A DNA stretch of 60,788 nt from an uncultured virus (IMG/VR IMGVR_UViG_3300038345_000178) (lineage: Duplodnaviria > Heunggongvirae > Uroviricota > Caudoviricetes): IMG/VR virus record IMGVR_UViG_3300038345_000178. The stretch is one strand, 5' to 3'. Numbering within the stretch: position 1 is the first letter of the stretch; each line of letters starts with the position of its first letter. Under the pieces are notes generated by a model that was given only the letters and a program-made list of their open reading frames with translations, searched no databases and was not told the origin of the DNA. This document shows positions 2,701-60,498 of this stretch, piece by piece. Made by a program: the position numbers and the translations under genes.

Positions 2701-4269
2701 TTAATTCATGCTTTCTTTATTTTGAATAGTTTTTGTTGATTTTTCATCATTTGCCTTTTCTGGCCGGCCAGCCCCTTCATTATTACTACCACCATTTGCC
2801 GTTTTATTAAGAACGTCTACGTTCATTGTGCTTGACATTAATGGAGGAATAAATACATTAACTAAATCAAGAATGTCATTTTCAAAATAAGCATTTGCAA
2901 GAACTGCACTTTGGGCTTGACCAAGAGCAATTTGTGGTAACATTTTTGAATAGCCCAATTGAGTTTGCTCTTTATATAATTTAGCTAATTCTTTATAATT
3001 ATAAATTGTTGTTGGTAGAATTTGCGCTCTATAATAAAATCTTTTTGGATTTTTATTATAAGGGTTTAATAAAACATTAATAAAATTCTCAAACTGTTGA
3101 ATTAAATTCCACATTGAAGCTTCATCATTTAAAATAGATTTTTCAAGAGCAATATTACCATCGGTGTTAAATTGCATTTGAGAGACTCCAGCTTCATTAT
3201 AAACAGTTCTTTCAACTTTTTCCAGCCCATCAGTTGCGGTGCTTGTATAATTATCTGCCATATTTGCAACTTCAACATCCGCAAAAGTAGTTAATACATC
3301 AATACCAATAGCCTTAGATAACATTTGAACAGCGTTGTTATGTAATTGTTGGGCTTCATCAACGTCAAATACTAAATCGCCATTTTTATCAATAGGCATC
3401 TTTTGAATAATAATTTTTAAAAGCTGTTGTTGCATTTTTCTTCTATCTAAATCTTGTGCTGCATCTAAATCAATTATTGCAGGAATTACAGAAATAAATG
3501 GAGGAAAATCTTCATCATTTAGACTAAATTTCAATACAGCTCCGCTTGTTAATAAATACCATCCAGATTCATCTCCAGGAAAATCTGGCGGCAATTTTCC
3601 TTTTTTATATAATTTATAACCAATCTCAAATTCTGGTGGGAAAATTTTAAATACTTTTGCACGCTGCTCACTATTGGTAAACATATCATCAAAAAATCTC
3701 ATATTAAATTCAACCGCAGGTTGACCATTTAAATAAAAACGAGATCTGCAATACCTTGGTGGAAGCTATTGAAGAGCAGCGCTTTTTTCTTTTGTAATTA
3801 AATAGCCATAATAACAACCATTTTTAACAACCTTTAAAGCAATTTCACCAAAAAGTTTTTTTAAACCAAAATTATCTAAAAATAATAAAACTCGTTTAAA
3901 ATTTTCTAATAATTTTTTAGAATCTGTTCCATCTGAAAAATGTGGTGTAACTAGCCAATCATATCTATACATATAAGCCATATATCTACATAATCGTTGA
4001 TAAATACCGCTTATTTTATAAAAATAATTAGAAATCTATCGCATACGCTATAAATCCCCGCCATGGATAGCTCTTAGTATATTTACTTTATCACCTAGAG
4101 TTGGATTAACTTTTTTTAGGTCTCCAAGCTTTAAAATGGCGTCTGATACTGTTTTTACTCCTATTCGAACTTTAGAAAAATCAATAGGAACAAAACCATC
4201 ATTTAGGCTATCTGTTGCTTGAACCATATCAAAACCTTTTTGTTTTATATAAGCCATTCTATCAATCAA
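2701..4269 (-). CDS. Portal protein (522 aa, 3 in-frame TAG read through)
   Basis: ORFs 4048-4269, 3766-3981 and 2701-3702 share one frame, broken only by TAG at 4048-50, 4036-38 and 3766-68; size and position fit a portal. Confidence 0.7.
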
Positions 4270-4293
4270 AGCTTCAGATACCTCTCTTTCTCA

Positions 4294-4650
4294 TTACCAA
4301 CCTGCCGCGCCAATAATATAGTCATAAGTAATTCTTCCTTCGTCCCAATAAGGAATAATAACCAAATTAATATTATGTTTTTTACAATACTAACGTTTTT
4401 TCATATCATTATATTGCTGTTTACGTAAACCGCTTATACCACCAAATACTTCTTTTGGTTGATAATGTTGAATCCCTTGAAACTCAATCAAGAAATCTAA
4501 ATTTTGCTAATCATCAAAAACCGCAAAATCAAATCTTAGCGGGCGGCCAGTATTACTTACTAAATCTGGAAAAGAATATTCTTCTGCGAAACTCAATCCA
4601 GATGCCTTCAAAATTTCCTAAATCTTAATTTCTCCTCTTGAAGCTCGCAT
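4294..4650 (-). CDS. PD-(D/E)XK-like nuclease domain protein (118 aa, 3 TAG)
   Basis: MRASRGEIKI*EIL...LRFDFAVFDD*QNLDFLIEFQGIQHY...DMKKR*YCKKHNINLVIIPYW; S.GE / FDF / IE.QG.QH pattern of Vsr/DUF559-like nucleases; absent from the ORF track because of TAGs. Confidence 0.7.
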
Positions 4651-4717
4651 TTTGCATCTTTCCTTTCTATTTTATATAAAAATTCTCAAAATTCTTTTAA
4701 CAATTTTTGTCCTATGT

Positions 4718-7700
4718 TTATGAAGAGGTAAAAAATAAAAAATCTGTAATATTATATTTTTTCTTCTTTTTATTTAAATCTTCTTCTTTTTTTACATAAT
4801 ATAATCCATATAAAAAAGCTGAAAATTTATCTTTTTTTATACTTCTATTATTTTGTTTTAAAATAATATTAATTCCTTCATTTTCTTCTACTAAATTTAA
4901 CATTTGCTACTTTAATACAGAAGTCAAAATAAAAGGTCTTAAATACTCATTTCTTTGATCCATATCCATATTTTGTCCAACTTTGGTAGACATTAGTTTT
5001 GTTTTAGCTAAACTTTCATCTATTAAGAATCTAATTTTACCATTATACATTTGAGATTGAACATAAGAATACGCTTCTGTATTGATAGGTGCATTAGCTT
5101 TAATTAAAAATAATACATCTCTTTCTGTGTCTGGTGTAATAAATTTTTTATATTCTGGATATTCATCAGTATTATAAACACCAAAAGGCGGTAAAAACTC
5201 ACCATCGTCTGTGTCTTGAGCTTTAATTAAATAATCTACCAATCCAACTCCTACATTTGTATTCCATATAAGACGCTACCCTTATATGCGCTTTCGCTGC
5301 TTTATGTTTCCATAAAGATTAGACTATATCATTTCTTCCTTTTCTGCTTCGGATATCAATCGCTTATATCCTACTCTCTTTCGAGATAGTCGTTGAACCT
5401 TTGTTAATATTACTTAAAAGTTGCTTCCAGGTTTTTTTATTTTTAATTTTTCCAATAGTATCAGGATGAACATTAAATTCATTGCCTAATTTAATATTAG
5501 ATTCACCTTGATTTGATCTTATATAAATATCAATTACTTGTTCAGGAGTAAGTTTGGCAGCCCCATTAACAGAAGCTCTTAAATTATGTTCAATGGCATG
5601 AAGAATATTCTCTTTACAAGTAACCCATTCTAAATTCTATAAACAATTATTTCGTTTATTTCCATCTTTATGATTTACTTGATACGCTTCCATATGTTTA
5701 ATAGGACAAAAATTTTCCATAATTAATCTATGAACAGAATATCTATGTCTTTTTCCATCTTTAGAAATCATCTGAATTTTTTCATAACCATTTTTATCTA
5801 ATTGAGGATTTAAAAATTTTTGACTCCTTTCACTCCAAACTTTTCCATTATCAGTAACATAATAATTAAATTTTAAATCATATTTACATATAGTAATCAA
5901 CTTTTTCATAATTTTTCATAAACCTCCAATAAAGATTTTTTTAACACTTGGCTGCTGATTGCCCTCGCCTTTTTATCGTTAGGGTTTCCCAGCAATTCAA
6001 AAAATTTTACATGGGCTAGATGTAAAAATTAACCCATTGGCATCAATTGCTATCCGCCGCGGTTTATATTTATAATATAAATGCTTTATATGAATACATT
6101 GAGTTTCAAAATGCTATTCATTATATGAATATAAATTTACTAATGTCTTATGTGCAGGACCCTGAACCTGCGGCGTCACTTTAATAATACAAACTTCAGT
6201 AGTGCATCCAACCCTACCAACGTCAACTCCTAATACATAATAAGCGGTTTTTGATGATCTTCCGCTATACTCATACTACGGTTGTAATAATACTCGATAT
6301 TTATCAAATTTTTCAGAAGAGAAGAACGCGTTATTAACGTCTCCAGACCAAACTGAACGATATTCTCTATTAAAAGACTCTTCATTAAAAGTTCCCTGCA
6401 TACGAAGATTTTCAACAAAATTTTCATCTAATAAACCACATAATACTGGTGTTTCATAAGTTCCACCCATAATCATATATTCATCTGGTTCTAAAATAGA
6501 ATTAATCAAAATTTCAATAAGCTTGTGATAGGCAAAAGAGTTCTTCCAGCCCGCTGTTGTTCCTTTATATTCCATATAATTCGCTAAATTATATGCGTTC
6601 TCTAATGAACTGCTATATATTTCTATATAGAGTAGACTATATCTTCACCCTCTAAATTATTTATTAAGGGGGCCACCGCTTCCACTCGCTTGAGTGTACT
6701 CTTTTTCAAGATAGTCGTTGAACCTTCCCTGAAAGCAGGGCTTGGCTGCTGATTGCCCTCGACTTCAACGTTAGGGTGTCCCAGCAATTCAATGGCTTTC
6801 AATTATTCATTACTGAATAACGACACTATTTTTTGTTTTTCTTCGTTATTAAGTTTATTATATTCTAAATTATAATCTTTATAAGTTAGTCCTTTTTTTA
6901 TACAATCTAAAGTATAAGGGCTTGAAATATTTACTAATTCAGCCATTTTTTTACGAGATACAATTTTATTTTCAAAATTATATAAAATCATAAATACTTG
7001 CTCTTTTGTTAAGTGTCTCTTTGATTTTATAATAGTTTGACTAACTTTTTTTTCATAAAAATTAGAGCTGTCACAAAATATCTTATATATAGCTTTTCGC
7101 TCTTCTAATGACATTTTTTTATATTCATTTATATATTGATTATGATTAATCTCTTTTTTAATTCTACTCACGGTAGTTAATGAAATATTAAAAATTTTTG
7201 ATAACACCCCTCCTGGACGAGAACAAAATTCTAAAGCTGCACAAATATTATAGATATCTGATTGAGTTAAATGACTACCACCATTTGAAGGACCAAAATT
7301 TCCGCCTTCGTTTTGATTATATCCATTTTTATAACTATCATATTTTTTTATAAATTCTTGTTCTTTTTGTCCAATTTCTTGTTCTGAAATATCCCCTTTA
7401 AATTCTACTGTAAAAATAAAATTATTTTCTCCATAAATATTAAATTCTTTTTGAAGAAAATGATTATCATGCCGATTACATTTTAAATCGGTAAAATGTC
7501 TAGAACGTCTTCTTGCTATATTATTAGTTAAACCAATATAAATTTTATGATTTTGTAAATTTTCTATTTTATAAATATAATACATATAATAGAAACCTCC
7601 TTTTATTTTTTCTATTATATATAAAAATTATCTATATAACTTTATAACGCTTTGTCCAAAAAAGTTAATGTATATTTGACTCTTATTAACGATTTCTTCT

Positions 7701-8338
7701 GGATGTCTTGAACCATCTGACAGTCTTCTATCAACGTTTGTAGTAGGTATAATAACTTCATTAAGCATATCTCCGTCAATAAGGACACATTCTTCCATTA
7801 CTCCACCAGTTCGCCTTTGTCCTCTTGAAGATTGTCTTGCTGCAAGAATATCAATAGATGAATTGTTTTTAAATACATATTTTACGTTATCCTTTGATTT
7901 AGTAGAAACACCGCGGTCCCAATTAATCTCGTTAGATAACGCGGGGATTAATCTACAAATCTATTCAATTTTGGCAATAGTAATACTTGCCGCTTGCTAT
8001 TTACCACCAGTTGTAACAAATAATTGAGAATTAGGATATAAAATACATCGTAACATTAATGCCATCATTGATAAAAATGATTTAGAATATGCACGAGGAA
8101 ATACTCCATATACATATCTATGTCGCATAATTGCTCTTAAAAATATCCTTTGATAAAAAAGAAATTGAAATGTTGAATCTTTCCCCTTAATAAAATCAAC
8201 AAAAATATCAGGATACCATCTAAAAAAAGCAATTAACTCTCTTAATCCATCTAAATCTGTGTTAATTCTTTCTTCAGATAATCCTTGTTTTTTATATTCT
8301 CTATTCTAAGATAATTGTAATAATTCTTTTAAACTCAT
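4718..8338 (-). CDS. terL: Terminase large subunit; 3 exons (8338-7668, 6561-6032, 5253-4718; 578 aa), several TAG read through
   Basis: Spliced frame gives FPRAYSKS (Walker A-like), GVMEE (Walker B), YITTAG, the LGVDVG nuclease motif and IDANGLGVG; exon lengths sum to 1737 nt, a multiple of 3. Confidence 0.85.
5254..6031 (-). mobile_element. Group I intron 2 in terL
   Basis: Minus strand carries core elements TGAATTGCTGG, GGGCAATCAGCAGCCAAG, AGGTTCAACGACTA and GATATAGTCT; 5' exon ends in U (AUGGGU, pairing with intronic GCCCAU); intron starts TAA and ends in G; removal restores DANG-L-GVG. Confidence 0.85.
5364..5909 (-). CDS. HNH homing endonuclease in intron 2 (181 aa, 1 TAG)
   Basis: VHRL...VNHKDGNKRNNCL*NLEWVT..EN motif continues through the TAG at 5637-39 to TAA at 5364. 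Confidence 0.8.
6562..7667 (-). mobile_element. Group I intron 1 in terL
   Basis: Same P/Q/R/S-like core at about 6630-6792; 5' exon ends in U, intron starts TAA and ends in G; removal restores QIY-I-TTAGWK. Confidence 0.85.
6803..7585 (-). CDS. GIY-YIG homing endonuclease in intron 1
   Basis: YIYKI...KIYIGLT...R...H...E...GYNQ pattern followed by HTH-like repeats; GGAGG SD. Confidence 0.85.
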   Translation of the reverse strand: MYYIYKIENLQNHKIYIGLTNNIARRRSRHFTDLKCNRHDNHFLQKEFNIYGENNFIFTVEFKGDISEQEIGQKEQEFIKKYDSYKNGYNQNEGGNFGPSNGGSHLTQSDIYNICAALEFCSRPGGVLSKIFNISLTTVSRIKKEINHNQYINEYKKMSLEERKAIYKIFCDSSNFYEKKVSQTIIKSKRHLTKEQVFMILYNFENKIVSRKKMAELVNISSPYTLDCIKKGLTYKDYNLEYNKLNNEEKQKIVSLFSNE

Positions 8339-9654
8339 ATTTCAAATGACACCCTCCTTGATAAATATTCCTGTTCAATAGATTCATCTGTTAGGTTATC
8401 ATCTACCGCCTTCATATTAGCAAGCTATTCTTTATATTTTGCAAAATCTTCATCTTTTAATTCTACTTCTCTTTTTCCTTGCTTTTTAGCTTCTTCTTGG
8501 TCGCGTTTTCTTTCTTCCCTAATTCGCTTCTCTTGTAAATACTTTTCAATCTCTTGAGCCAATGATTTATCTTCATATATTAAAGTTCTATTATAATCTT
8601 TTAAATCTTGTAAAATTTTATCTACAACATCTTTTGGTTCTTTACAATGATAACGAGGAACTTTTCCAGTATGAGATTCTACATAATCAACAATAGCAGA
8701 AGCAGAATCTAGGGCGGACCCTTCTGATTCTTTGTTCTGCGCCTCTGTAAATTTTGCAGATTTCATCATAGAATCATAAACTCTTGATAATTTTTGATAA
8801 CTATCTATATCTCCGCTATCAATAGCCTAATCCATTTTCAAAGATGTTTTACAAATTTTCTTTAAAGTATCAATTCTTGCCGCCCCTTGAATATCAAATG
8901 AGTTCATAAATTCTGTATATAACTGCTCAAGAGCAACCCATTGCGCTGGAGTGTATAAACGTCCCCATTTCATTGCTAAATAAATTTTATCCTAATGGCT
9001 TAAATTCGCACTTGGATCTTCGCTTAATAATTCTTCTTCTGGTATAAAATTTTTTTCTTGAAAAGGATTTTTTAATTGATTAAGAGCCTACTCATAAGAA
9101 GTAACTTTACTGTTTTTTATAACTCCTGTAATTACATCCCCCTGTACTGGTGGCAGTTCTTTTGCTTGAGTTTCTGTACTAACTAAAGTTTTGTATTCTG
9201 CTTCAGTAATTTGTCCATTTTCAAATCTTTGTTTTAATTCTTTTTCATAGTCTTTTTTTTCTTTTTCTTTTTTTCCCGCCTTTTCTCCAGCTTGCTATTG
9301 AAGCATTTCACTATCTTTATATGAAAAATCTTTCCATTGTTTTAATCGCATTTTTGCAAGATATTTTCCAATTACGGTTGTTCCATTCATTTTATAAGGG
9401 TCTTTTGCAAAAGCTTTATCTCTAATAACGTTCCATTCAATAGGAACGTAAGGAACATCCATTGTTTCTAATACCCATAAAAATGTTTTTTCATCAAAAT
9501 TATCTATATGTGCGGTTAAGCATGCTTTACATAAATTACATTTACTACCGTCTTTATATTGATAAAAATTAATTTCTGTAAGTATCTTATTACATCGTTC
9601 GCACTTACATTTTCCATTTGAATTTGGTAATTGTCCACGTAATCCCTATGGCAT
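8335..9654 (-). CDS. Zn-finger protein overlapping the terL start; candidate small terminase/packaging factor (439 aa, several TAG)
   Basis: MP*GLRG...CERC...CKAC...; the frame continues through TAGs into ORF 8425-8769 and ends at a TGA overlapping the terL ATG (ATGA). Confidence 0.55.
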
Positions 9655-9658
9655 ATAA

Positions 9659-10744
9659 TCATCCTTTCTTAATTTTTTTCTGATTGCGGCAACATTTACA
9701 AATGCTATACCATCCATCTTTAGAAGTTTTATTTTTAGTAAAAAAATAAGGATGTGCTAATTTTATTTCTTGGCACTTTGAACATTTTTTCCATTTACCT
9801 TTTTCTTCAAAAGTGTAATGCCAAACAATCCAATCCTATTTAGCTTTATCTGCTAATAATTTTGGGATTTTTTTACGCCATAATATAGATATATATTCAG
9901 TAGAATAAGTATGTCCATATTTCTACAAAAGAACTTCCGCAATTTGTTTACTTGTTTTATCTTTGAATTTTAATTTTATTAAATCTAAATAAATAGCATA
10001 ATTGCCGCATAAAGTTTTATTTATTAATTTTTCAAAATCATTTATTAAATAATAAAAATCATTTTCAATTTTCCCTGATAATTCTTTTTTTAAATTAGTA
10101 TAATTACACAAAAGACAGCTAATATGAGTTGGATTAAATAAAGATATTAGTCCATCACTTTCCGGTTCGCCTTTTTCATTAATTGTTATATTTTCATTTA
10201 AATGTAATTTTTTTCCAAAATTTCTTATTACTTTTGTAACAACAACAGGTTGCTTAAAAGCATTTTTAATTACATACTGATCTTTTCTCATTTCAATTAA
10301 ATGCTTAGTTAATAATGCTTTTCTTCTACCTACTGCCGCATTTTTTTGTTTTTCAATTAAATCAATAGCTTGCCGCAACTCTGCTAATGGGGGGATGTCT
10401 TGAATATCCTGTTCAGTGATTTGAATTTTTGGAGTAAGGAGTACATTTTTATCTGCTTCAGTTATAAAATTATAAATCCCGCTCTCTTGATTTTCAAGGT
10501 TTTCCGCAAAACCCTAAAAAGAAATTTCTCTCTTATCAACAGTCACCATTCTATTGGGAGTAAGAATATATTTTCCTTTTTTCATATCTGCGGTTTCAGT
10601 TAAATAATTACTTAATTCTTCTAAATAAAATGTAGTTAATTTTTCTTTTGGCACGGTATCTATAATATTATTTACAATCTACTTACGTTTCTAAATATCA
10701 GTGATTGTTGTATCTAACTAAGGATATGGTCTATGTTTTTCCAA
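9659..10744 (-). CDS. HTH and Zn-ribbon protein, putative transcription regulator (361 aa, several TAG)
   Basis: TTG start after AAGGAGG; frame includes ORF 9923-10378 (TSKQIAEVL, HTH-like) and a C-terminal CSKC...CKCC; interrupted only by TAG. Confidence 0.6.
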
Positions 10745-45878: not shown

Positions 45879-45881
45879 TAT

Positions 45882-46260: not shown

Positions 46261-46267
46261 AATATAT

Positions 46268-46762: not shown

Positions 46763-46816
46763 CTTTGGAGATTAGCCGTTAATCGCCATAAAGGATAAAC
46801 GGCGGCATAATAGTAG

Positions 46817-47027: not shown

Positions 47028-47254
47028 AAAATGTGAATCCCAAGCAGTCGCCTCTCAGCACATAGGGGTATTTAGTAAAAACTGCAAAGGCTGAAAGTTA
47101 GTGCTGTAATGAGTAAGTCGAGACACCGTTGGGATGTCGGTGTCACTTATATTAATTTGATATGACGGAGGAAGGCGGCGGGTCTGCACGTCGAGGTCTT
47201 AGTCCATGGGATAAAAGCCCGAAAGTGCTGGTTCAAATCCTATCTCCGTATTAT

Positions 47255-47331
47255 GCAAATGTAGCTTAGATGGATAAAGCCCTCGACCGATAATCGAGAG
47301 ACCACTGGTTCAAGTCCAGTCATTTGCACCA
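47255..47331 (+). tRNA. tRNA-Ile (GAT)
   Basis: CTCGA CC GAT AA TCGAG (C33), ACCA. Confidence 0.82.
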
Positions 47332-47371
47332 TTAAAAATAAAAATAAAAATACTTTAAAGGAGAAGAAAAT

Positions 47372-47704
47372 ATGTCAAGGTACAGAACTTACACAGATGG
47401 TAAGGGTAAGGTAGTAGTGGTATCCACCTATGCAGGCAAGAATGTCCGAGGAGTTGCAAAGTGTCATCCAAGTGATACTTTTGATAATGAAAAGGGCGTA
47501 GAAATTGCTCAGGCTCGATGTGATTTGAAGATCGCTGAAAAGAGAGTTAAGAGAGCAAAAGAGAAGTACAACGAAGCGGTTGCTGCTTTTAATACCGCGT
47601 CTAAGAATGTTGACAAAGCTACTGAGTATGTGCTCCATGCAGAACAGCTTGCTCTTGAAGCCTGTAAAGCTCTTGAAGCTTGCGGTAAGGATATTACAAA
47701 TTGA
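47372..47704 (+). CDS. Hypothetical protein
   Basis: AAGGAG SD; GVAKCHPSDTFD...G..IA..R followed by a coiled-coil. Confidence 0.6.
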   Translation: MSRYRTYTDGKGKVVVVSTYAGKNVRGVAKCHPSDTFDNEKGVEIAQARCDLKIAEKRVKRAKEKYNEAVAAFNTASKNVDKATEYVLHAEQLALEACKALEACGKDITN

Positions 47705-48192
47705 CAAAACTCTCCTAATAAAATACTATAAGGAGAGATAATAAATTGAAGTCTTTACGTCAATACTTTCATATATCAGCCGCAACAATCATTTTGGCTT
47801 TATAGTCAACAGGAACAACAGAATAGGAATTATTTAAAAAGTTAATTAAAAAAAATATTCCTTTGTTTGAATGTTCCATTCCATATCAAATAAGTTCATC
47901 TCGATTAGAAAAAGTTAATGATGTGCTGTATATATTAGGTTGCGACGAGAACGAAATTATTTATATTGATTTTTGATATGATAGAATTTTTCGCTACAAT
48001 AGGAAATCAGATGGTGGAAGGAAATTTTTCTTTCGCCATCTTAGTTGTCGGCATTATACAGTGTATGCTGATGATAACAACTTTACTTACGAGAAAAAAA
48101 TAACATTTGTTGATTTTTAAAAAAAATTATAGTATAATATATATGTAAGATAAAAGAGAAAAGAAAAATAAAAAATCTCTTTTATCAAATAT

Positions 48193-48267
48193 AGCAGTAC
48201 AGAGCGTTGGTCGTTCAGCTTCCTCATAAGGAGTTTGGTGTAGGTCCGATTCCTACTACTGCTACCA
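48193..48267 (+). tRNA. tRNA-Met (CAT), atypical D-arm
   Basis: AGCAGTA/TACTGCT acceptor, CT CAT AA loop, ACCA. Confidence 0.6.
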
Positions 48268-48410
48268 CTTCGGCACTTGAGCTATATCTCAAGCCAATTT
48301 CACAAATATATAGTCGAAGAATATTTTTGTTATCAAAAAATAACTCTATTACATTTTTGTAAAGTTAGCGTTACTGACGTCATCTTAGTTTTTGGTAATA
48401 GAAGAGATAT

Positions 48411-48488
48411 CGGGGTATGGTCTAGTTTGCTTATGGCGCTCGCTTTGGGAGCGAGATATCGGGAGTTGAAATCTCCCTACCCCGACCA
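48411..48488 (+). tRNA. tRNA-Pro (TGG)
   Basis: C1-G72, CTCGC TT TGG GA GCGAG, ACCA. Confidence 0.85.
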
Positions 48489-48498
48489 CCTACTATAT

Positions 48499-48572
48499 TC
48501 CAGTATGGCGAAATAGGTAAAACGCAGGGTAGATATCGCCCTATATCATAGGTTCGAATCCTATTGCTGGAA
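48499..48572 (+). tRNA. tRNA-like gene with a non-canonical anticodon loop
   Basis: Acceptor, D and T arms intact; loop AGATATC lacks U33 and purine 37. Confidence 0.55.
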
Positions 48573-48576
48573 TTAT

Positions 48577-48661
48577 GGGGAGGTATTCCGTAAGTGGTAG
48601 CGGGGCGGTCTGTAAAACCGTTGCTTCGGCTCGGATGGTTCGACTCCATCCCTCCCCACCA
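48577..48661 (+). tRNA. tRNA-Tyr (GTA)
   Basis: GCGGT CT GTA AA ACCGT, variable arm, ACCA. Confidence 0.85.
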
Positions 48662-49467: not shown

Positions 49468-50352
49468 ATGTATATTTACATGGGTATGTTCTTTAAATCT
49501 CCACAAGACGTTCCAGATTTTGGTAGCATAACAATGTATTTTGTTGGCACTAAGTAGCTGGGATATGTGGAAGAAGGACATAAAAGATTTAGAAAGTATG
49601 CCTTCCAGTCTACAGATTTGAATAAACTATCTTTAATAACAAATGCAATAGATGGCTCCGAAGCATTTGCTGTTGACACTGGAACTACTTATGTATTATA
49701 TGATGGATAGTGGAGTGTAAAAAGCTCTGAATTAAATCCAACAAAAATTGCGGAAATACTTGAAAATATTACTCAAATTGATTATCAAATAGTAAATTAG
49801 TTACCGCAAACTGGTGTAAAAGGAACAATTTATTTAATAGCGAACGAAACTGCATAGGGCGATTATTATGATGAATATATATATATTAATAACGCCTATG
49901 AAAAAATGGGGAATACTGCACCAGCAATTTCTACAATGACTGGAGCTACTGCCAATGCGGCTGGAGCTGCTGGGCTAGTTCCTGCTCCAACAAGCAGCGA
50001 AAAAGATTATTTTCTAAAAGGAGACGGAACCTGGTCACAAATAAATGTAACTAATACAGATACAACCTATACATTGGCTCAAGACCCCAATGATGGGCAT
50101 AAAATTACTTTTACTTCATCAACAGGAAGCGCAACTACAATTACAATTCCTGATGATGATACTACATATAATGCGGCGACCCAGCAAGCAGACGGTTTAA
50201 TGTCTTCAACAGACAAGACTAAATTAGATAACATTACTGTTGCAGATTTGCTAACAACCACAGATATTGTAGTATGCACTCAAGATCAATATGACCAATT
50301 ACAATCAAAACCTGCTTTATTATATTTTATTAAATAGGATGAAGGGGGTTAA
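49468..50352 (+). CDS. Tail-fibre-like protein (294 aa, 5 TAG)
   Basis: One frame through TAGs; GLVPAP...FLKGDGTW and ADGLMSSTDKTKLD fibre motifs. Confidence 0.7.
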
Positions 50353-50357
50353 TATAA

Positions 50358-53231
50358 ATGCCCATTTATTCTCAAAATAAACAAATTGTAAAAATAATGA
50401 ATAATAATAACGATGTTTTATTTAATGCAATAAAGAATATAAATGAAAAGTCTATGACAGGGGCGCCCTCGCTCCAATTTCAATCTAATGGAGATAATTT
50501 AACTAATTATACAATATATGGAAATAAAAATGGAGTAGGAGATTATAATTTAACAACATAGAAATATGATATTCCAATTACGGTTAGTAATAAAAATTTA
50601 TTTGATATGAGTAAAGTAGACCTTGTTAATTTAAATCCACAATTTGGAACTGGAAAAGTTATTCAATTTGATTCTTCTGTTTATAGTTTAGTTATGCCAT
50701 TAGAAGAAGGACTTTATACTTTTTCAATATTAGCTCCGCTTAATGATAATCTACGTAATAGACAAAGAATAGCTTGCTATAGTAGATATCCTCAATTAAA
50801 TGATGAAACATTGTCATGGACTGAAATTTCTCATAGAGAAAATGATGTTGGAGATATTCTTAGTGTTAGGTTTTCAGCGCCGCACGGGACTAAATATATA
50901 ATGATTTTTTTATGGTATAAAGATTATCCTCTTGAAACTATAACTTCTATCCTTGAAAGTATTCAAATTATGATTTAGCCAGGAGATGTTGTAACAAATT
51001 ATATTGCTCATAATAGTAATACAACAAATATTTAGCTTGATGCTCCATTGTCTTTTAATGATAAAAAAGAAATAAAAAATCATAATCTGCAAACATATTC
51101 GGGTTTAAATATTTTCTCAGTAAATACAGAAAAAAAACCTGTAGCTATAACCCTTAATAATGATAATTTTACATATATTAACTCTGGATTACAAAAGTTT
51201 TATATAGTACGTTATTATAATGAAGATGAACTTGTTTATACAGAATATGTTCCTGCTGATAAAAATGCTATGGGTTTAGCTGAAGAGGCTTCACCCAAAA
51301 AAATTAGTTCAGAACAATATGATTATATTTTTAAAGGCTGGAGTGCCATACCTAATCAATCTATTGTAAATGCGAATATATTAAACAATATTACTAATAA
51401 TAAGGATGTATATGCAGTTTTTGAACAGGTTGAAAGGACTTTTACTGTTTAGTTTTATGGTGAAGATATTAATACTCCAATTCAAACAGTTCAGAATGTA
51501 CCTTACGGCGGTACAGCAACTTACACAGGAGCGACACCAACAAGCTCTCAGGCAGGCTATATTTTTTCAGGATGGTCGCCGTCAAATACGAACATCACAG
51601 CAGATACAAGTTGTTATGCTCAATTCAAAGAGGATGAAATGTATGAATCAATAACGGACACTTGGTCGCAAATCATCGCAAATGTGAGCAATGGCACATA
51701 CTCAACAAAATATCAAGTCGGTGACACGAAGAAGATTGACTTAGGCACTGAGGGCGAAGTCATTATGACAATAGTTGGTATTGATGCCGATGACCTTGCA
51801 GACAACAGCGGCAAAGCTCCGATAACTTGGATAAGCAAACAATTGTTGAAAACCAACCACAGAATGAACCCAGAAGAGCAGAGTGGTACATCGGGTACAG
51901 GAATTATCGGAGGTTGGGAGGCTTGCGAGATGAGGAGTTATCTTATCAACACCATCAAGCCGCTCTTGCCGCCGGAAGTCCGTAATGCGTTGAAAACGGT
52001 CAAGAAGTATTCAAGAATATACAATACTTCTAAAACATCAGTTAATAATGTTGTGTCAAATGATGATATTTGGATACCGTCAGCTTATGAGGTGAATTTC
52101 TCAGGTCATGAAACTTCTGGCGTTACATATTCTACCGCATTCCCTGATAATGCAAGCCGAATTAAACACAAGGTCGGTGGCTCTGCGGCGTGGTGGTGGC
52201 TGCGGTCTGCCAGTTCCTACGCTTTCAGAGTTGTCGCCCCCGGTGGTAGTAACAATGGCGGCAGTGCCGCTACTTCAGACGGCGTGGCGGTCGGCTTCTG
52301 CTTAGGTGCACCAACATACACAGTAACATATTATTCACAAGATGGACAAGCAGTTCTCTCAACAGAAACAGTTGAAGAAGGTCATAATTGTATATATTCA
52401 ACTTCACCTACAAAAGAATCTGATACAGACTTTGATTATAATTTTGTGGGCTGGTCAACAGCAACAAATAGTACAACTGCAACCGCAGGAGCCACTGAAA
52501 ACATTCAACAAAATACCGATCTGTATGCTGCATTTAGCAAATCATTTAAAACAGATACTATTTCTGACTCTTGGGAAGAAATAATTGCTAACTGTGATAA
52601 TGGAACATATGCAAGTAAATATCAAGTTGGTGATTTAAAAACAATTAATGTTGGTACAGAAGGTCCTGTTCAAATGCAAATAGTTGCTATTGATACAGAC
52701 TTATTAGCATCTGATAATACCAAGAAAGCACCAATTACATGGATTAGTAAACAGCTATTAAATACTTATAAGGCTATGCATAGTACATCGTCTGGTTATT
52801 TACCAGATTGGGCTAATTGTGATATGAGAACTTATTTAAGAGGCACTATTCTACCAATGTTACCTTCTGTTGTTCAAAATGGAATTAAAGAAGTTACTAA
52901 ATATACTTGTAAACGTACTAGCTCTACAGCATATACGACTGTAAGTGCCACGGAAAATATATGGCTGCCTTCTTATAGAGAGGTTAGTAACAATACTTCA
53001 AACTGTGAGACCTCTGGTGTACAATATAATAGTATATTTACTGATAATGCATCACGAGTTAAATCTAAAGTTGGGAATAGCGCTTATTACTGGTGGACAA
53101 GATCAGCCTCAGGGAACTCGAATAGCGCCGCTTCGTAGCGTTTTGCTGGTATGGATAGCGACGGTACTGCGGGCTACTATGGCCGCATCTGCACCGGTTC
53201 CGTTGGGGTGGCTATTGGATTCTGTACATAA
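50358..53231 (+). CDS. Tail/receptor-binding protein 1 (957 aa, 5 TAG): InlB-B-like repeats plus two DUF6273/CLec-like domains
   Basis: ORFs 50358, 50607, 51048 and 51639 are in one frame broken only by TAG; WW.RS...GV..GFC domain ends. Confidence 0.75.
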
Positions 53232-53400
53232 TAAACCAGAAATGAAATAAAAGGAGTTTTAAAAAGTGTGTCTGTCGTAAAAAGTTAAAGAAAATTATCT
53301 AATTTAGAATATGTATTGGGAGCTATTTTTAAAAATGCAAAATTGGATTAACAGTTAAATGCTATATATATTTATTCTTTTTGGAGGTGAAATATAAATA

Positions 53401-54765
53401 ATGTCTTATCCTTTTTCACACACAATTATAAAAATATTAGACAATTCAGGTAATGAGATTTTACCATTGAAAAACATTACAAGCGTAAATACAATTGCAG
53501 GTTAGCTTCCTGTTATATTTACGTCTAATGGTTCTAATTTAACATATTATGAAATTTATGGAAATACAAATGGAGTTGGAGACTATGATTCAACTACTCA
53601 AAAATATATAATCCCAATTACAATATTTAATTCAGTTTCCTCGCCAACTTCTTCACACACAATTAGATTATCTTTAGATTCTGCATTAACCGCATCTCAA
53701 AAGATAACACTAGTTGATACAAATATTGATATTTCAACATACAGTGGAAAGAATTTAATTACAGTAGATACAACTATTAAACCATCTAAAATTTTAATTA
53801 AAGGGAATATTGATTTAATTAGTATGGGTCCTGAAGTAACTTATACTATTACTTATAAAAATTATGATGGTTCTGCGGTTTTAGATACAGAAACGATTAT
53901 CACCACTTTTGGAGTTAAAGCCAATGCAAGAGGCTATATTAATACTACTCCTACAAGAACTGGAACTGCAGATTTAAATTATACATTTGTAGGATGGTCA
54001 ACCGCCCCAAATCAAACGTCTCGAGCCGACGAAAGCGTGTTTCACAATATTCAAAATGATTTAACTTTATACGCAGCATTTCAAAAAACTTTTACAACAG
54101 ATACTATTTTAGATTCTTGGGAGCAAATTATTGAAAATTGTAATAATGGTACATATATGCATTATCAAATTGGCGATTTAAAAACTCTAGATATTGGCAG
54201 CTAGGGACCAGTTCAAATGGAAATTGTTGCTATTGATACGGACGATAAAGCTGATAATTCTGGCAAAGCCGCAATTACTTGGATAAGTAAGCAATTATTA
54301 AATACAGAACGCAGGATGCACTCAAGCTCTAATGGTTATGCAGCATGGTCTACTTGTGAATTAAGAGGTTATTTAAGAGGTGAATTTTTCTCAACGCTAC
54401 CAATTGTGGTTCAAAATGGTATTAAAGAAGTTACTAAATATACCTCTTAGAGAACTGGAGCCACAGATTGGGCAACTCATTCTAGCACTGAAACTATTTG
54501 GATTCCATCTTCTAAAGAAATTGACAATACTGTTGAAAATAATGGTCCATATTATTCATGTGCAGCTAGAACGACCCCCTGGAGGAGCAAAGACCAAGAT
54601 CCATCATCCTATTGGACATCCTATTGGTGGTTAAGAACCGCTTCTACAGGTCCGGCATATAGTGCTGGCTGCTATCAAAGGGTATTTAATTGCGATAAAA
54701 GCATTAACACAAACGGTGACTATGCCACAAAGTTAAATAAAATAACTTTTGGATTTTGCACATAA
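53401..54765 (+). CDS. Tail/receptor-binding protein 2 (454 aa, 3 TAG)
   Basis: GGAGGTG SD; same domain family; TAG at 53503, 54202 and 54448. Confidence 0.75.
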
Positions 54766-54871
54766 ATATTTTTTAATATATGCAAGAAGGATAACTTCTT
54801 GCATATATTAAATTGACTTTTATTAAAAATTTTGTTATAATAAAATTGGACTATAAAAAAGGAGTGATTAA

Positions 54872-55198
54872 ATGGGAACAATTTCAAAAGTAAAATTACC
54901 AAATGGCACTTAGTATGATATCATTGATGAGAAGGTCGCTCAAAATGCGGCACCTGCATCTGGTACTTTTGATTTATTATTAGCTAAAACCGCAAGTAGT
55001 CACACAGCAGAAACAAATACTACATACAAAAGCGGTTCTAATTTAAATTTTAATGCCGCCACTGGCCAATTAAACATTTCTGGCGGAGTGGCATTAACTT
55101 CAAATGATATAGTAATATGTACAGAAAGCGAATATGAAAGTATGCAATCAAGATCTGGGTTGTTTTATCTCATAAAGGAAGGGGTCCCTTCTCCATGA
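54872..55198 (+). CDS. Short fibre-related protein (108 aa, 1 TAG)
   Basis: C-terminus DIVICTESEYESMQSRSGLFYLIKE is paralogous to the end of 49468-50352. Confidence 0.65.
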
Positions 55199-57114
55199 GT
55201 CTTGTTTCTTCTGATAACAAAAAAATTACAGCAATAAAAGATAATCTTGGAAATGTTCTTATAGATTTTAGAAATACTATCATAGTTTAGCAAGAACTCC
55301 CTATTATGTTTAATTCTTCTGGATATAATTTAACAACATATACTATTGAAGGCAACTCTGGTGGAGTTGGAAACTATGATTCAATAACTCAAAAATATAT
55401 TATTCCAATTACAATTAAAAATAAAAATTTACTTAATTTAAATAATATTGATATTGTAGATTTCTACCCCGATAATGCAAATGGAACTTTAACAAATGCA
55501 ATAGCTAATTGCCACAGTATTGTGGTTCCAATTAAATAGGGTGTATACACTTTTTCAATTAACCATCCTAGTGGATAGCCAGTAAGAAATAGAAATAGAA
55601 TAGCTTGTTTTGAAAATTATCCTCAATTAGGAGATACTTGTTTAACCTGGACAGATACTGCCGTTCGTACTGGTGATATTGTTAGCATTAACTTTTCAGC
55701 CCCTACAAACACAAACTATGCTGTTATTTTTCTTTGGGCAGGAAACAATCCTTATACAACCGAATTAATTAATAATATTATCGTTAATAGATAGTTAATG
55801 ATAGAACCAGGAAGTGCTTTAACTACTTATGTTGAAAACGCGGAACAAACAATCGAATTGTCCTTAAACGATCCTCTATTTACGAATCAGTATGTTTCGG
55901 GTCCAATTGATAATAATACTATAATTCAAACCTATGAAGGATTGAACATATTAACAGTAGACACAACAATAAAACCCTTAACAGTTTTATTAAAAGGAGA
56001 TATTGATTATATAGATGCTGATAATCCTACAATATATAAAATAAGATATTATAATACAAATGGCAATCAATTACTATATACAGAATATATTCCAGCTGGC
56101 GGGAATGCAAATGGCTGGTTAAGAGCTCCATCAAAGCCAAAAGATCAATACGAATATACCTTTGTCGGCTGGAATTTATTAACAAATCAATCTACGGCAA
56201 CACAAAATGTGCTTAATAATATTACTTCTGATAAAGATGTATACGCAGCCTTTTCTGCGGTTGAAGCTTCTTATACAGTTAAATTTATTAATGGAACAAC
56301 TCTTTTGCAAACTGTTAACAACATTCCTTATCAAGGAACTGCAACATATACTGGTAGCACTCCCGTTCATCCAGAATCCCCAGAGAATTATATTTTTACG
56401 GGGTGGCTTCCTTCAAATACTAATATTGAAAACGATATGGTTTGTTATGCTCAATTTCAATATGTGCCTCAAACTATTGAAGATAGCTGGGAAACAATTA
56501 TATCAAATGTTAATAATGGAACTTATTTAAATAAATATCATGTTGGTGATTTGAAAACTATTACTGCTAACGATGGATCTGTATCTATAGATATGGAAAT
56601 TGTTGCTATTGATGCAGATGATAAAGCTGATAATTCTGGCAAAGCCGCAATTACTTGGATAAGTAAGCAATTATTACCATATCCTTATGCAATTGATTCA
56701 TCTTCTGACTTGAGTTGGGAAAATAGTGATATAAGAAGTTTTATAAGAGCAATTACTACAGCTTATTTCCCTTCTATCATACAAAACGCTATTGTCCCTG
56801 TTAAAAAATATTCGATTATTTATGATTCTGGAAATTATACAGAAGCACTTACAACCGACACTACATGGATTCCATCATATAGAGAGATATTTGGTGGTTC
56901 CGCTCATGAAACACACGGTCCAATTTATTCATAGATTTTTTCTAATAATACTTCTCGTATTAAAGTTATAGGAAATAATACTATAGGTTATTGGTGGTGG
57001 CTACGCTCTGTCGAGGGTTTTGATACTTATTATAGAGTTAGTGCAGAGGGTTCTAGTGGAGTTGGTTCTAATCATTAGACAACAGGAACTTTTGCAATAG
57101 GTTTTTGTTTTTGA
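55195..57114 (+). CDS. Tail/receptor-binding protein 3 (639 aa, 6 TAG)
   Basis: ATGA overlap with the upstream gene; single frame through ORFs 55306 and 55798 to TGA. Confidence 0.75.
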
Positions 57115-57151
57115 TATAAATTTTAATAGATAAAAAGGAGGGACGTATTTT

Positions 57152-59353
57152 TTGAGCATCGTTGAAAATGTTAATAATAATGAAACAATTATTATGATAA
57201 AAGATAAACAAGGAAATATTCTTGCTGATTTAAGAAATACTTCTATAATTAGTAAACAATATCCCATTATTTTTAATTCTTCTGGCAATGTTTTATCAGA
57301 TTATATTATTTATGGAAATACAAATGGAGTTGGAGATTATAATTCCACTTCCCAAAAATATATTATTCCAGTAACCATCCATTCAAAAAATTTATTTAAT
57401 GTAAGCAGCGCAACTCTAACAACTTCATATCCAGATAATATAAATGGACAATTTACAGATTAGCTTGATTATTGTCATAGTTTAATACTTCCATTTTCTT
57501 AGGGGGTATATACATTTTCATTAAATTCTCCTACAAATGAGGTACTAAGAAATAGAAACAAAAATAGAATAGCTTGTTATAGCAGCTATCCACAAGTTGG
57601 AGACAATTGTTTAGCTTGGACAGAAAATTATATAAGAGATGAAGATAGATTTAGTATACCATTTTGTGCCCCCGCAGGAACCGCATATATTTCTATTTTT
57701 TTATGGGCATCTAATACATATACAAATGCATATATCGCCGATGTTATTGCTAATAGCGAATTAATGATAGAGCCTGGTAATGAATTTACTTCATATATAG
57801 CTTATAATACTAATACAATAAATTTATCTTTAGATAGCGCACTAACTGCGAATCAAAATATTTCAAAAAAAGATATAAACACTTAGATTTCTACTTACAA
57901 AGGGACAAATTTATTAACAATAGGAACCACTGTGTAGCCTTCAAATGTATTAATTAAAGGAAATATTAATTATGCAGAATCTTCTTATTTTAATATGCAT
58001 AGAGTTCGATTCTATAACCAAGATGGAAGCCAATTATTATATACAGAATATGTGCCCGATGGGAAAAATGCTCATGGATGGGCACTAACTCCTTCAAAAG
58101 CAAGCACAAATCAGTATACTTATAATTTTGTAGGATGGAATATAGCTACAGGGCAAACTGCGGCGACTGCTAATGTACTAAATAATATTATTACTGATAA
58201 GGACGTATATGCTGCTTTTTAGCAAGTTGAAAGAACTTTTACAGTACAATTCTTTTATGATGAAAATGCTAGCACGCCACTTCAAACTGTTGAGAATGTT
58301 CCTTATGGTGGAACGGCGACATATACAGGAAGTACACCTACCAAAACTGACCATACATTTATTGGTTGGGATCCAAGTCCTACAAATGTTACAGAAGATA
58401 TAAGTTGTTATGCTCAATTCATCAAAGCGCCCTATATCACTGATAGTTGGGAAGTAATTTCTCAGAGGTCTGACGCAGGTACGGCACAAAATTATTATTC
58501 TGTCGGAGATTGCAAACCTGTTGTACTTAACGGAACTATGGGTACACTTGCTCTAAATACGACATTATATGTGTATATCTTAGGATTTAATCATAATTCA
58601 AATTTTGAAATACCAGATATAATACCAGATATTATAGCGTCTGGTGCAAAAGGTCCAGATCCAGTTCGACAAGCTTATACTTACTCAATCACATTTGGTT
58701 GTTTCAAAACTGCCGCAACTAATGGCATTGATGTGTGTTTGGTTGACAGTAAGTATAATTCATCCAACACCTCCGGCACAAAATATTTCAATATGTTACA
58801 TAGGGGCTATTACAACTACGGTGGTTGGGCTGGTTCAGATATGCGTTATGACATACTTGGCTCTACTGACGTTCAGCCCTCAGGGTACGGTTCCACTCCG
58901 ACAACATCAAAAACAGGTTATAACGCAACTTCTACGTGTGCAACAAGCCCTGTTGCCAATACGCTTATGTCATGTCTGCCGAGCGACCTGAGAGCCGTTA
59001 TGAAACCCATGACAAAATACACTGATAACAAAGGTGGCAATGGCTCAAATGCAGAGGCAAATGTTACTTCTTCCATAGACTATTTACCGTTGCTGTCTGA
59101 GTATGAGATTCATGGCGTGAGGAGCCATGCAAACCAATATGAGCAGAACAAACAGGCACGATACGCATATTATACTGCTGGCAATAGCAAAGTTAAGTAC
59201 CAACACAGCGCAACTTCGTCTACCGCCACTTGGTGGTGTCGCTCGGCTTGTTACAGCTACTCTCGCGCCTTCTGTCTTGTCAGCACCAGCGGTAGCGCGG
59301 GCAACTACGACGTCAGCAATTCTCGCGGCGTTGCCCCATGCTTCTTAGTGTGA
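57152..59353 (+). CDS. Tail/receptor-binding protein 4 (733 aa, 5 TAG)
   Basis: ORFs 57152, 57995 and 58538 are in one frame; ends WWCRS...GVAPCFLV. Confidence 0.75.
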
Positions 59354-59361
59354 GGTGAAGC

Positions 59362-59757
59362 ATGAAATATATTGTTCATACACGATTTAAAGCTAAAGCA
59401 ATATGTGGAGAAGTCAATCTTCCCGCATTAACTGAAGTCAATCTTAAAGATAATATGCTATATTATCAAGATAAACAACTATGCGTTATTACAAGTGAAA
59501 ACGCTCACAAATACTTTGCCCGTAATGATGATAATAATGGTATGGAACGAGGAAGGCTAACTCAATTAATTAAAAGCAGACTTGAAAAAAATGATGAAAA
59601 GCGTCAAGACAGATGGGATAAAATTTGGAAGGACAAATTGTGTCAAAAATATAAACGTATAGAATATGCAGACTATTGGTTGTGGAACACAGCATTTTTT
59701 AATGCACCAATAGAAGATTTGAAATATATATACAATTTAATTAAGGAGGAAAAATAA
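59362..59757 (+). CDS. Hypothetical protein
   Basis: GAGGTG SD directly after the CLec-like gene. Confidence 0.6.
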   Translation: MKYIVHTRFKAKAICGEVNLPALTEVNLKDNMLYYQDKQLCVITSENAHKYFARNDDNNGMERGRLTQLIKSRLEKNDEKRQDRWDKIWKDKLCQKYKRIEYADYWLWNTAFFNAPIEDLKYIYNLIKEEK

Positions 59758-59758
59758 A

Positions 59759-60085
59759 ATGAAAATTGTTCTTAATGATAATTCAGAAATTACAATAAAT
59801 AGTGCCACTTATGATGGACATTATATAGTAAATTGCGAAAGCACTGCTGCTTATCAAGCACTATGGAATCGTTTTACTGCAAACAATTTGGCGGATTTTA
59901 AATTATTAAATGATGATAATAAACTTGTTGAAAGGACATTATATATCAATCTTTTAAGCACACAAGCAATTTTAAATCCAGATGGAACCGTTACTGGTCA
60001 TTTTTATTTCAATGGTGGCACAAAAGTTCCAAATGAGCTTGAAGAAGCTGGAAGAATTTTATTAGGAGAGGATGAAGCCGAATGA
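59759..60085 (+). CDS. Hypothetical protein
   Basis: AAGGAGG SD, 108 aa. Confidence 0.6.
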   Translation: MKIVLNDNSEITINSATYDGHYIVNCESTAAYQALWNRFTANNLADFKLLNDDNKLVERTLYINLLSTQAILNPDGTVTGHFYFNGGTKVPNELEEAGRILLGEDEAE

Positions 60086-60498
60086 GTTTAATAGATAGAG
60101 CAAGAATATTAAGACCTATTATATAGTCATTAGCAGCTAATTTAGATGATGAAACTGCGCTCGCCGCGATTTAGTTATTTCAAAAATGGCAAACTAATAA
60201 AGAATATCAAAAAGATGAAAAAGTTCGTTATAATGATATTTTATATAAAGTTAATCAAACTCATACCTCTCAAGATGATTGGACTCCTGACATTGCAACA
60301 TCATTATTTTCAAGAGTTTTAATTCCAGATCCAGAACAAATTCCAGTATGGGAGCAGCCCGATAGTACAAATGGATATATGATTGGTGATAAAGTACATT
60401 ATCCTACAATTGAAGATTCAGTTTATGAATCTACAATTGATAATAATGTTTGGTCACCAGTATCATACCCTCAAGGCTGGAAGCTTGTGGAAGAATAA
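60082..60498 (+). CDS. CBM5/12-like carbohydrate-binding domain protein (138 aa, 2 TAG)
   Basis: MSLIDRARILRPII*SLAANLDDETALAAI*LFQKW...Y..DEKVRY...QTHTSQDDWTP...W.QP....GY..GDKV. Confidence 0.7.

Follow-up and report, generated by a model that had tools for sequence, protein, structure and literature searches.

A tailed phage that probably reads the amber codon TAG as glutamate

Introduction

The 60,788-base window analysed here, which is the whole stretch of DNA of IMG/VR record IMGVR_UViG_3300038345_000178, is part of the genome of a large, tailed gut phage in which the amber codon TAG very probably encodes glutamate (Glu, E), with TAA and TGA presumably as the only stops. This assignment, put forward in a first-pass annotation of the sequence, is supported by the codons found opposite TAG in orthologous genes, by two controls in which TAG encodes glutamine (Gln, Q), and by a phage-encoded suppressor tRNA of the tRNA-Glu type. 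The background on which the annotation had drawn was found to be accurate: the available text of three sources (bioRxiv 10.1101/2021.08.26.457843, PMC10607447, PMC8346664) reports amber recoding in phages as a change to glutamine only, and TAG is read as glutamate in NCBI tables 30 and 31 and as glutamine in table 15.

Relatives of the portal, the split large terminase and their neighbours sit in IMG/VR contigs of ~130-145 kb. By portal identity, the nearest named phages are an unannotated 'Bacteriophage sp.' record (64%) and phAss-1 (38%), followed by Enterococcus, Brevibacillus and Bacillus phages. Two sets of relatives served as references. The related loci were the best 80 of 183 stretches encoding a portal relative, with portal identities of 55-99%. 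The complete relatives were five genomes, G001-G005, of which G005, with almost no in-frame TAG, was used as a standard-code decoder.

Results

TAG as a sense codon

Many open reading frames (ORFs) of the window were extended or merged once TAG was read as a sense codon. Defined in this way, 19 of the 44 window ORFs contained in-frame TAG, 66 codons in all, which amounts to 1.07% of the codons of those ORFs. Family or homologue support was obtained for 15 of the 19, namely, on the head side, the portal gene, three pieces of the large terminase (TerL), two HNH genes, a phrog_3314 gene and a sigma-like gene, and, elsewhere, the gene at 27087-27899, five tail-module genes and the gene at 60082-60498. 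The 44 ORFs terminate in TAA (30) or TGA (14), but TAG stops could not show up in this count, given that TAG was treated as sense when the ORFs were delimited. Stops inside tblastn alignments were counted as well, with the window as subject: TAG occurred 33 times, TAA 10 times and TGA 16 times, as compared to 5, 16 and 10 in the same count for G005. Only TAG was enriched, the TAA and TGA background stemming from off-frame ORFs in the query set. This was in agreement with the earlier claim that the genes become continuous when TAG is read through.

In two tail genes, the conserved C-termini lie beyond the last TAG (GFCF/GFCT ends after 57076 and 53136), and TAG is therefore unlikely to act as a stop in these two genes. 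TAG terminates just 3 of 80 long ORFs in G005, which indicates that TAG stops were already uncommon in this phage family. Furthermore, single columns have TAG in as many as 35 of 79 independent contigs, which argues against assembly error, and a contig that is 99% identical to the window, L001, retains 8 of the in-frame TAG codons.

Glutamate codons opposite TAG in orthologous genes

Window proteins with an X at each TAG were aligned to the DNA of the related loci, and the codon opposite each TAG was read. Of the 25 TAG sites in the head module, 13 had E as the majority residue, three had K, two each had D, N, S and Q, and one had R, a tally of homologue residues in line with the glutamate assignment of the first-pass annotation. 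When each site was counted once, the log-likelihood was -50.9 for E, -73.6 for Q and -76.8 for K. The same alignments provided the controls: genuine E codons showed an E majority in 148 of 198 cases, while genuine Q codons showed a Q majority in 80 of 108 cases and an E majority in only six. The codons opposite the window TAG codons were GAA (438), TAG (187), GAG (150), GAT (108), CAA (59) and CAG (10). Among the codons one step away from TAG, GAG was thus found 150 times, CAG 10 times and AAG nine times. The change from TAG to CAG (T to C) is a transition, and transitions are more frequent than other substitutions.

The individual genes, all on the minus strand, illustrate this pattern. The portal gene (2701..4269; phrog_2739, E 1e-79) carries three TAG codons, at 4050, 4038 and 3768, and at the last of these the 80 loci display E 66 times, TAG 12 times and D twice. 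In the adjacent gene for an HNH/homing-endonuclease-like protein (4294..4650; phrog_9084; three TAG), site 4392 showed E 49, TAG 22, K 5 and I 4, and site 4620 showed E 55 and F 11. The large terminase (4718..8338; phrog_2, phrog_15503 and phrog_24618; six TAG) consists of three pieces at 7628-8338, 5997-6575 and 4718-5242. Its sites 6278 (E 57, TAG 13), 6116 (E 53, TAG 14), 7999 (E 37, TAG 17), 7963 (E 44, TAG 14) and 4909 (E 47) faced Q in no locus. The phrog_3314 gene (8335..9717) and the sigma-factor-like late gene (9659..10744; phrog_5767), with six TAG codons each, were more varied, with D 24 and E 22 at site 8994 of the former, and E 34 at site 9838 and K 17 at site 10681 of the latter. 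The gene at 27087..27899, which has no assigned function, carries eight TAG codons and had tblastn matches in G001-G003, in which E was found at 27560 (3 of 3), 27281 (two E and one TAG) and 27848 (one E), and K at 27533 (three K).

In-frame TAG was not confined to the window, being present in 45 of the 80 related loci. One or more relatives had TAG in 263 columns, in which the predominant sense residue was E in 147, D in 29, Q in 22 and K in 15, and among the 91 TAG columns that were at least 80% conserved it was E in 71 and Q in nine. The genome-wide set comprised 189 unique columns anchored on G005, each with TAG in the window or in G001-G004. Here, the most frequent G005 residues were E (85), Q (18), D (15), S (14), A (13) and K (11), and the log-likelihood was -402.0 for E versus -547.6 for Q. 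In the corresponding G005-anchored controls, genuine E columns gave shares of 0.58 for E and 0.055 for Q, and genuine Q columns 0.54 for Q and 0.067 for E. TAG columns common to at least three genomes faced E 12 times and Q three times. A further comparison, of codon composition between early and late genes, was not counted as evidence: the late genes have as much GAG plus TAG (1.93%) as the TAG-free genes have GAG (1.93%), but this match was discarded because the two classes of genes are unlike in their Q and E contents.

Two TAG=Gln controls

The distant relative phAss-1 was annotated with TAG=Gln by its authors (table 15; available text of PMC10607447) and is filed by NCBI under 'code 15 clade'. 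When its sites were examined in the same loci, they faced Q in 79 of 80, 84 of 84, 74 of 77 and 19 of 19 loci. The second control came from within the portal family. L040, an IMG/VR contig of 8,966 bases, contains 14 TAG codons, eight of which fall on Q columns (for example Q 73/73, 55/55 and 69/70) and one further on a mixed E/Q column, whereas the TAG codons of loci L080 and L073 are located at invariant E columns. Judged by its codons, L040 represents a lineage that reads TAG as Gln, next to the clade that reads it as Glu. Together, phAss-1 and L040 show that the method is able to return Q.

A suppressor tRNA of the tRNA-Glu type

ARAGORN predicted 21 tRNAs in the window, one of them with anticodon CTA. 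This putative amber suppressor tRNA(CUA), at 38238..38310 on the plus strand (Rfam RF00005, 52.8 bits), has a tRNA-Glu body with a G1.U72 first pair, A73, a 3-bp D stem, the D-arm GGTCAAGCGGTTTAAGAC and a variable region of 4 nt. The latter was counted by hand from the sequence and the Rfam alignment; ARAGORN itself draws 3 nt for the window suppressor, 3-4 nt for tRNA-Glu from bacteria and 4-6 nt for tRNA-Gln. The D-arm pattern, allowing an extra T, was searched in one genome per prokaryote species and occurred in at least 120 stretches; these 120 were all Bacillota-type records except one labelled Bacteroidaceae. Among the matches listed, 113 tRNAs bore this D-arm, comprising 88 tRNA-Glu(UUC), 24 tRNA-Glu(CUC), one unclear case and no tRNA-Gln, and eight of the listed loci, mostly cut ones, yielded no such tRNA. 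Save for one extra loop T, the suppressor D-arm is that of 112 Bacillota tRNA-Glu among these matches. Since G1.U72 was present in 10 of the 24 listed tRNA-Glu(CUC), a single change, C36 to A, would be enough to make such a suppressor. In the suppressors of the relatives, the first pair is C1-G72 or G1-C72.

The determinants of the Escherichia coli glutamyl-tRNA synthetase (GluRS), as given in the available text of PMC9976931, are position 34, U35, C36, A37, U11-A24, an augmented D helix and the absence of base 47, with G1-C72 as a weak determinant. The suppressor possesses the D-helix and base-47 determinants (U11-A24, the augmented D helix and no base 47), and in its anticodon loop C34, U35 and A37 are kept, while position 36 is A, as the reading of UAG demands. 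For amidation, bacterial GatCAB reads a U1-A72 first pair (PMC2811023 and PMC9976931, both in their available parts). This mark of tRNA-Gln is absent from the suppressor, whose first pair is G1.U72 in the Rfam register, and ARAGORN may place T-A as an eighth pair atop its acceptor stem. In ARAGORN drawings of bacterial tRNA-Gln, T:A was on top in two of six and an eighth pair T:G in four of six. On reading by hand, the U1-A72 of Bacillota tRNA-Gln lies beneath the drawn eighth pair, and these tRNAs have a D-arm unlike that of the suppressor, with a 9-nt D loop. Phage tRNA-Gln had T:A in three of four cases.

Identity comparisons with the anticodon masked pointed in the same direction. The suppressors of the window and of G001-G004 were nearest to tRNA-Glu, with maximum identities of 0.73-0.76, and tRNA-Gln was never among their top five isotype matches. 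The phages' own tRNA-Glu reached 0.77 to the tRNA-Glu set and the phage tRNA-Gln controls 0.85-0.92 to tRNA-Gln, so that both kinds of control were sorted to the right isotype. Indeed, tRNA-Glu was also nearest when only the 3' half was compared, without the D-arm that had been used for fishing. A top row of 'tRNA-Met' among the nearest tRNAs was disregarded, as it came from a cut locus of 118 bases (L144).

BLASTN of the suppressor against the relatives gave weak matches only, and ARAGORN was therefore run on the whole records. Each of the four complete recoded relatives, G001-G004, encodes one tRNA(CUA), of the Glu type, which adjoins a tRNA-Glu(UUC) in three of the four, and the anticodon-arm loop CUCUAAA is common to all five phage suppressors. 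No GluRS or glutaminyl-tRNA synthetase (GlnRS) catalytic domain and no release-factor domain was found in 30 window ORFs or in any of the five complete relatives. An Rfam-only tRNA at 38455-38526 was considered as a second suppressor and rejected, its anticodon being CAU. G001 additionally encodes, at G001:C1:90222-90296, a tRNA whose UUA anticodon would pair with TAA and whose D-arm resembles that of tRNA-Glu; within the G001 alignments, TAA was at background (38 versus 187 TAG).

Tail-module sites, paralogues and database translations

The tail/receptor-binding module (49468..60498, plus strand) comprises a gene at 49468-50352 (five TAG), four paralogous fibre-like genes at 50358-53231, 53401-54765, 55195-57114 and 57152-59353 (five, three, six and five TAG, respectively), a gene at 54872-55198 (one TAG), a CBM_5_12 gene at 60082-60498 (two TAG) and two TAG-free ORFs. 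The first-pass annotation had treated the paralogues as an internal decoder, with nine sites at which TAG faces E, and all nine were reproduced: 54202 (E, E, G), 50976 (E, E), 55537 and 57500 (both opposite E of 50358-53231 and opposite the TAG of one another), 55576 (E, D), 55792 (E, Q), 58220 (one E among four alignments, the other three having S, S and C), 53503 (E, Q, K, A) and 50335, where FIK-TAG stands opposite LIKE when the translations are compared by eye. Two sites had been described as clearly facing Q. One of them, 50559, does so in three alignments, but the other, 51450, faces K, F, T and L. K at some TAG sites, also noted earlier, was seen at 57935 (three times), and 51033 faced S in three alignments. 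The total of paralogue residues opposite TAG was E 9, Q 5, S 5 and K 5. With a substitution table derived from the same alignments, this gave log-likelihoods of -85.0 for E and -88.0 for Q. The paralogues are weak evidence, and by themselves they could not have carried the claim that TAG encodes glutamate.

Homologues of the tail proteins in a collection of 5.8 billion proteins have Q at many TAG columns. These Q residues came from near-identical relatives, namely P0001 (96%), P0068 (94%), P0007-P0012 (81-89%) and P0002. An exact look-up retrieved TAG=Q translations for five of seven window genes (Logan, ENA) and TAG=E translations for none of three. The genes with proteins carrying Gln at TAG in the Logan/ENA clusters were 60082-60498, 4294-4650, 7628-8338, 8335-9717 and 50358-53231, and the JGI sequences in these clusters are short pieces, as produced when genes are called with the standard code. 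Pipelines have therefore translated this phage with code 15. The Q in these databases is a pipeline choice and no evidence for glutamine, and the Q rows from near-identical relatives were dropped as evidence because the collection holds TAG=Q translations of the window phage itself. Since this false Q signal arose from TAG=Q translations, homology-based checks of the code against such databases are circular.

Among distant homologues, site 54202 showed E 84, Q 6, R 2 and Y 2 (94 in total) and site 50976 showed E in eight of ten. These were the only tail columns informed by distant homologues, most of the others being variable, and the TAG sites of the tail genes are thus weakly informative. 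The 150 representatives from the protein collection mostly cover the TAG-free C-terminal domain and were left out of the tally. A search among viral contigs for relatives of 55195-57114 and 27087-27899 returned none, and a single-protein tail query in metagenome contigs returned seven distant loci that cover almost no TAG site.

Genome layout and neighbouring features

In-frame TAG is located in late genes, for head, packaging, late sigma-like and tail functions, where the relatives show GAA or GAG. A block of 14 ORFs on the plus strand (30498..48661) is free of TAG and includes a sigma-70 gene and the tRNA cluster (38238-48661). The sigma-70 factor (37086-37967, plus strand; regions 1.2, 2, 3 and 4), which has no TAG, is encoded directly upstream of the suppressor. 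The window thus has two sigma-type genes, the TAG-free one beside the suppressor and the phrog_5767 gene in the late module with its six TAG codons, an arrangement that suggests a sigma cascade in which the second, late sigma gene depends on suppression. Other products of the TAG-free block are a cREC_REC receiver-domain protein (36631-37014, plus strand; E 3e-17) and a protein with DUF7666 and pentapeptide repeats (42352-43269, plus strand). At the end of the tRNA cluster, ARAGORN placed a tRNA-Tyr with the unusual anticodon ATA (48498-48573, plus strand; Rfam 43.7 bits) beside a tRNA-Tyr(GTA). A tRNA-Thr(TGT) that ARAGORN placed at 6145-6226 on the minus strand is probably false, given its position within a terminase exon and the lack of Rfam support at E <= 0.01.

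Two inserts split the terminase gene into its three pieces, which are contiguous in G001-G004. The first insert is a group I intron (6613-6844; 97.9 bits against Rfam RF00028), accompanied by a TAG-free GIY-YIG endonuclease ORF (6803-7585). The second holds an HNH ORF with one TAG (5364-5909) between two weak, sub-threshold group I matches. Three small ORFs at 28064..29752 on the minus strand (28064-28411, 28631-28963 and 29390-29752), with two TAG codons each, are weakly supported as genes, and no homologues were found for them. The region 11000-26500, which spans a gap of 100 N at 22834-22933, has a low coding density and only short ORFs with no family match; the motif C-A/T-x-C-T-K recurs in its shadow-frame translations and may point to a DNA element present in several copies.

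Discussion

A possible mechanism

Probably, the GluRS of the host, which presumably uses the standard code as do the hosts of TAG=Gln gut phages, charges the suppressor tRNA with glutamate. The suppressor would differ from a tRNA-Glu(CUC) at position 36 only, with A for C. As it keeps the tRNA-Glu D-arm and the missing base 47 and has no U1-A72 pair for recognition of the GatCAB/GlnRS type, glutamate would be both charged and retained rather than converted to glutamine. The charged tRNA would then compete with release factor 1 at TAG. A naive host could translate the TAG-free early block with the sigma-70 gene and the tRNA cluster, whereas the TAG-bearing late genes would become readable only after the suppressor had accumulated. 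Such an early/late layout fits the timing model outlined for code-15 phages in the available text of bioRxiv 10.1101/2021.08.26.457843. According to the available text of PMC12204705, human tRNA-Glu with its anticodon altered from CUC to CUA is as good a substrate of GluRS as the native tRNA. The phage tRNA has the same anticodon change on a tRNA-Glu body; it differs in being natural and phage-borne, and it would act in a bacterial host. Decoding by the engineered human suppressor depends on tuning of the anticodon arm, according to the same text.

Comparison with known systems

The window resembles crAss-like phages, Lak phages and phAss-1/Phassvirus (PMC10607447, bioRxiv 10.1101/2021.08.26.457843, PMC9523058, PMC8346664) in having TAG in late or structural genes and a TAG-free early block. 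As in the TAG=Gln gut phages, a tRNA(CUA) is encoded without a phage synthetase or release factor. The difference lies in the amino acid, which in the window would be glutamate, whereas phAss-1, a relative of similar genome size with a 38% identical portal, scores Q in the same test. The suppressors differ as well. The three tRNA(CUA) of phAss-1 were nearest to Arg, Pro and Trp isotypes in a crude identity comparison, and none to tRNA-Glu; their D stems are all 4 bp in length, and a long variable arm is present in one of them, whereas the window suppressor appears to be a tRNA-Glu derivative.

Phages whose code differs from that of their host are described in the available text of bioRxiv 10.1101/2021.08.26.457843 as showing TAG-to-Gln and TGA-to-Trp changes only, and surveys, as represented there, give phage recoding as TAG=Gln and TGA=Trp or Gly only. 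The Lak paper, in its available text, mentions some E alignments yet calls Q (PMC8346664), and a 2026 jumbo-phage survey applies codes 15, 90 and 91. In the openly accessible main texts of the literature, we found no report of TAG=Glu in phages. NCBI tables 30 (peritrich nuclear) and 31 (Blastocrithidia nuclear) likewise read UAG as glutamate, but these are eukaryotic nuclear codes in which TAA is also reassigned and, in table 31, TGA encodes Trp. In the window, TAG alone is reassigned, with TAA and TGA ending all 44 ORFs as defined with TAG as sense. To our knowledge, no NCBI table has TAG=Glu alone.

Alternative readings

Several observations weigh against a pure glutamate code. TAG columns are poorer in E than genuine E columns, both in the head-module orthologues (0.47 versus 0.65) and genome-wide (0.45 versus 0.58), and their Q share of 0.10 exceeds the 0.04-0.055 or so at genuine E columns. 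A mixture of E and Q fitted better than pure E by 5 log units, with a Q-like share of 0.13 (bootstrap 0.03-0.23), and S and A were also in excess. Single sites add to this: 10693 in the sigma-like gene (Q 19) and 9648 in the phrog_3314 gene (Q 5, K 4) have a Q majority, 8829 (E 20, Q 18, TAG 14) and 10516 (E 22, Q 13) in the same two genes are mixed, and tail site 50559 is Q in all three paralogues, which by themselves hardly separate E from Q. At 49855, the contigs of four of four other runs have CAG (X3 in one of two contigs); in this comparison of contigs, it was the sole TAG-site change among the differences listed. As for the tRNA, the acceptor stem of the suppressor has a G7.G66 mismatch, and its A36 replaces C36, a strong GluRS determinant in E. 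coli according to the available text of PMC9976931. The nearest-isotype comparison relied on a tRNA-Glu set fished with the window's own D-arm, a bias that the 3'-half test removes partly, and on small sets of 1-8 sequences for the other isotypes. Finally, the window is a genome fragment, and a second suppressor may lie elsewhere in the genome.

That TAG is simply glutamine (NCBI table 15), with the E in relatives reflecting tolerated E-to-Q replacements, could draw on the Q-majority columns, on 50559, on the change to CAG at 49855 and on the use of Q by the related phAss-1 and L040. We nevertheless regard it as highly improbable, given log-likelihood deficits of 22.7 at the head sites and 145.6 genome-wide, the placement of TAG at the invariant E columns 3768, 6278 and 7963, the 150 GAG against 10 CAG among one-step neighbours, the E majority at just 6 of 108 genuine Q sites, and a suppressor with a tRNA-Glu D-arm and no U1-A72. 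Ambiguous decoding, in which TAG is usually Glu but in a minority of cases Gln or another residue, could stem from near-cognate reading, from partial amidation of the G1.U72 tRNA or from a second suppressor beyond the window; alternatively, some TAG codons may persist as relics of an earlier TAG=Gln phase. The better fit of the mixture, the mixed columns 8829 and 10516 and the position of L040, in an unresolved fork next to the TAG=Glu clade, speak for this reading. This, too, seems improbable to us. S and A are in excess as well as Q, and we therefore take the Q-like excess mainly as TAG at less constrained positions, each of the four complete recoded relatives has a single, Glu-type tRNA(CUA), and the columns common to at least three genomes gave E 12 and Q 3. 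The idea that in-frame TAG is an artefact of sequencing or assembly errors, of pseudogenes or of true stops in split genes could point to the 100-N gap and to the three small TAG-bearing ORFs without homologues. Its chance is practically negligible, since as many as 35 of 79 independent contigs share a TAG at orthologous columns, in-frame TAG occurs in 45 of 80 loci and L001 retains eight of these codons, the alignments continue past TAG to conserved C-termini (GFCF/GFCT), and the window encodes a matching tRNA. The glutamate assignment of the first-pass annotation, favoured by the orthologue codons, the two TAG=Gln controls and the tRNA-Glu-type suppressor, hence appears the best explanation.

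Evolution of the code and implications

The portal sequences were placed in a quick maximum-likelihood tree of 82 rows (LG+G4, SH-aLRT only, rooted on the long-branched phAss-1). The window falls in a 40-row clade (support 99) with 39 TAG=Glu rows, the remaining row having two counted TAG. A second TAG=Glu group (L073, L074, L079 and L080) lies within a clade (support 99) that includes seven standard-code loci, and L040 sits in an unresolved fork beside the main TAG=Glu clade. On this placement, the family would include standard-code, TAG=Gln and TAG=Glu members. A wider conjecture, which we consider doubtful, is that a ~135-kb Bacillota-type family gives TAG two meanings, Glu in two portal-tree clades and Gln in L040 and Phassvirus, as set by the body of the suppressor; in its boldest form, a Gln-reading lineage switched to Glu, with the ~13% Q-like columns as relics. 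Such a switch, if true, would be the reassignment of an already reassigned codon.

If the glutamate assignment is true, about 1% of the residues in the late proteins would be wrong in public collections, and TAG=Glu with TAA and TGA as stops would be an additional natural genetic code for phages. A natural amber suppressor that inserts glutamate in Gram-positive hosts might also serve as a tool. The amino acid assigned to a captured stop codon appears to follow the body of the recruited tRNA, and since close relatives differ in reading TAG as E, as Q or by the standard code, this phage family would offer a natural system for studying how a genetic code changes.

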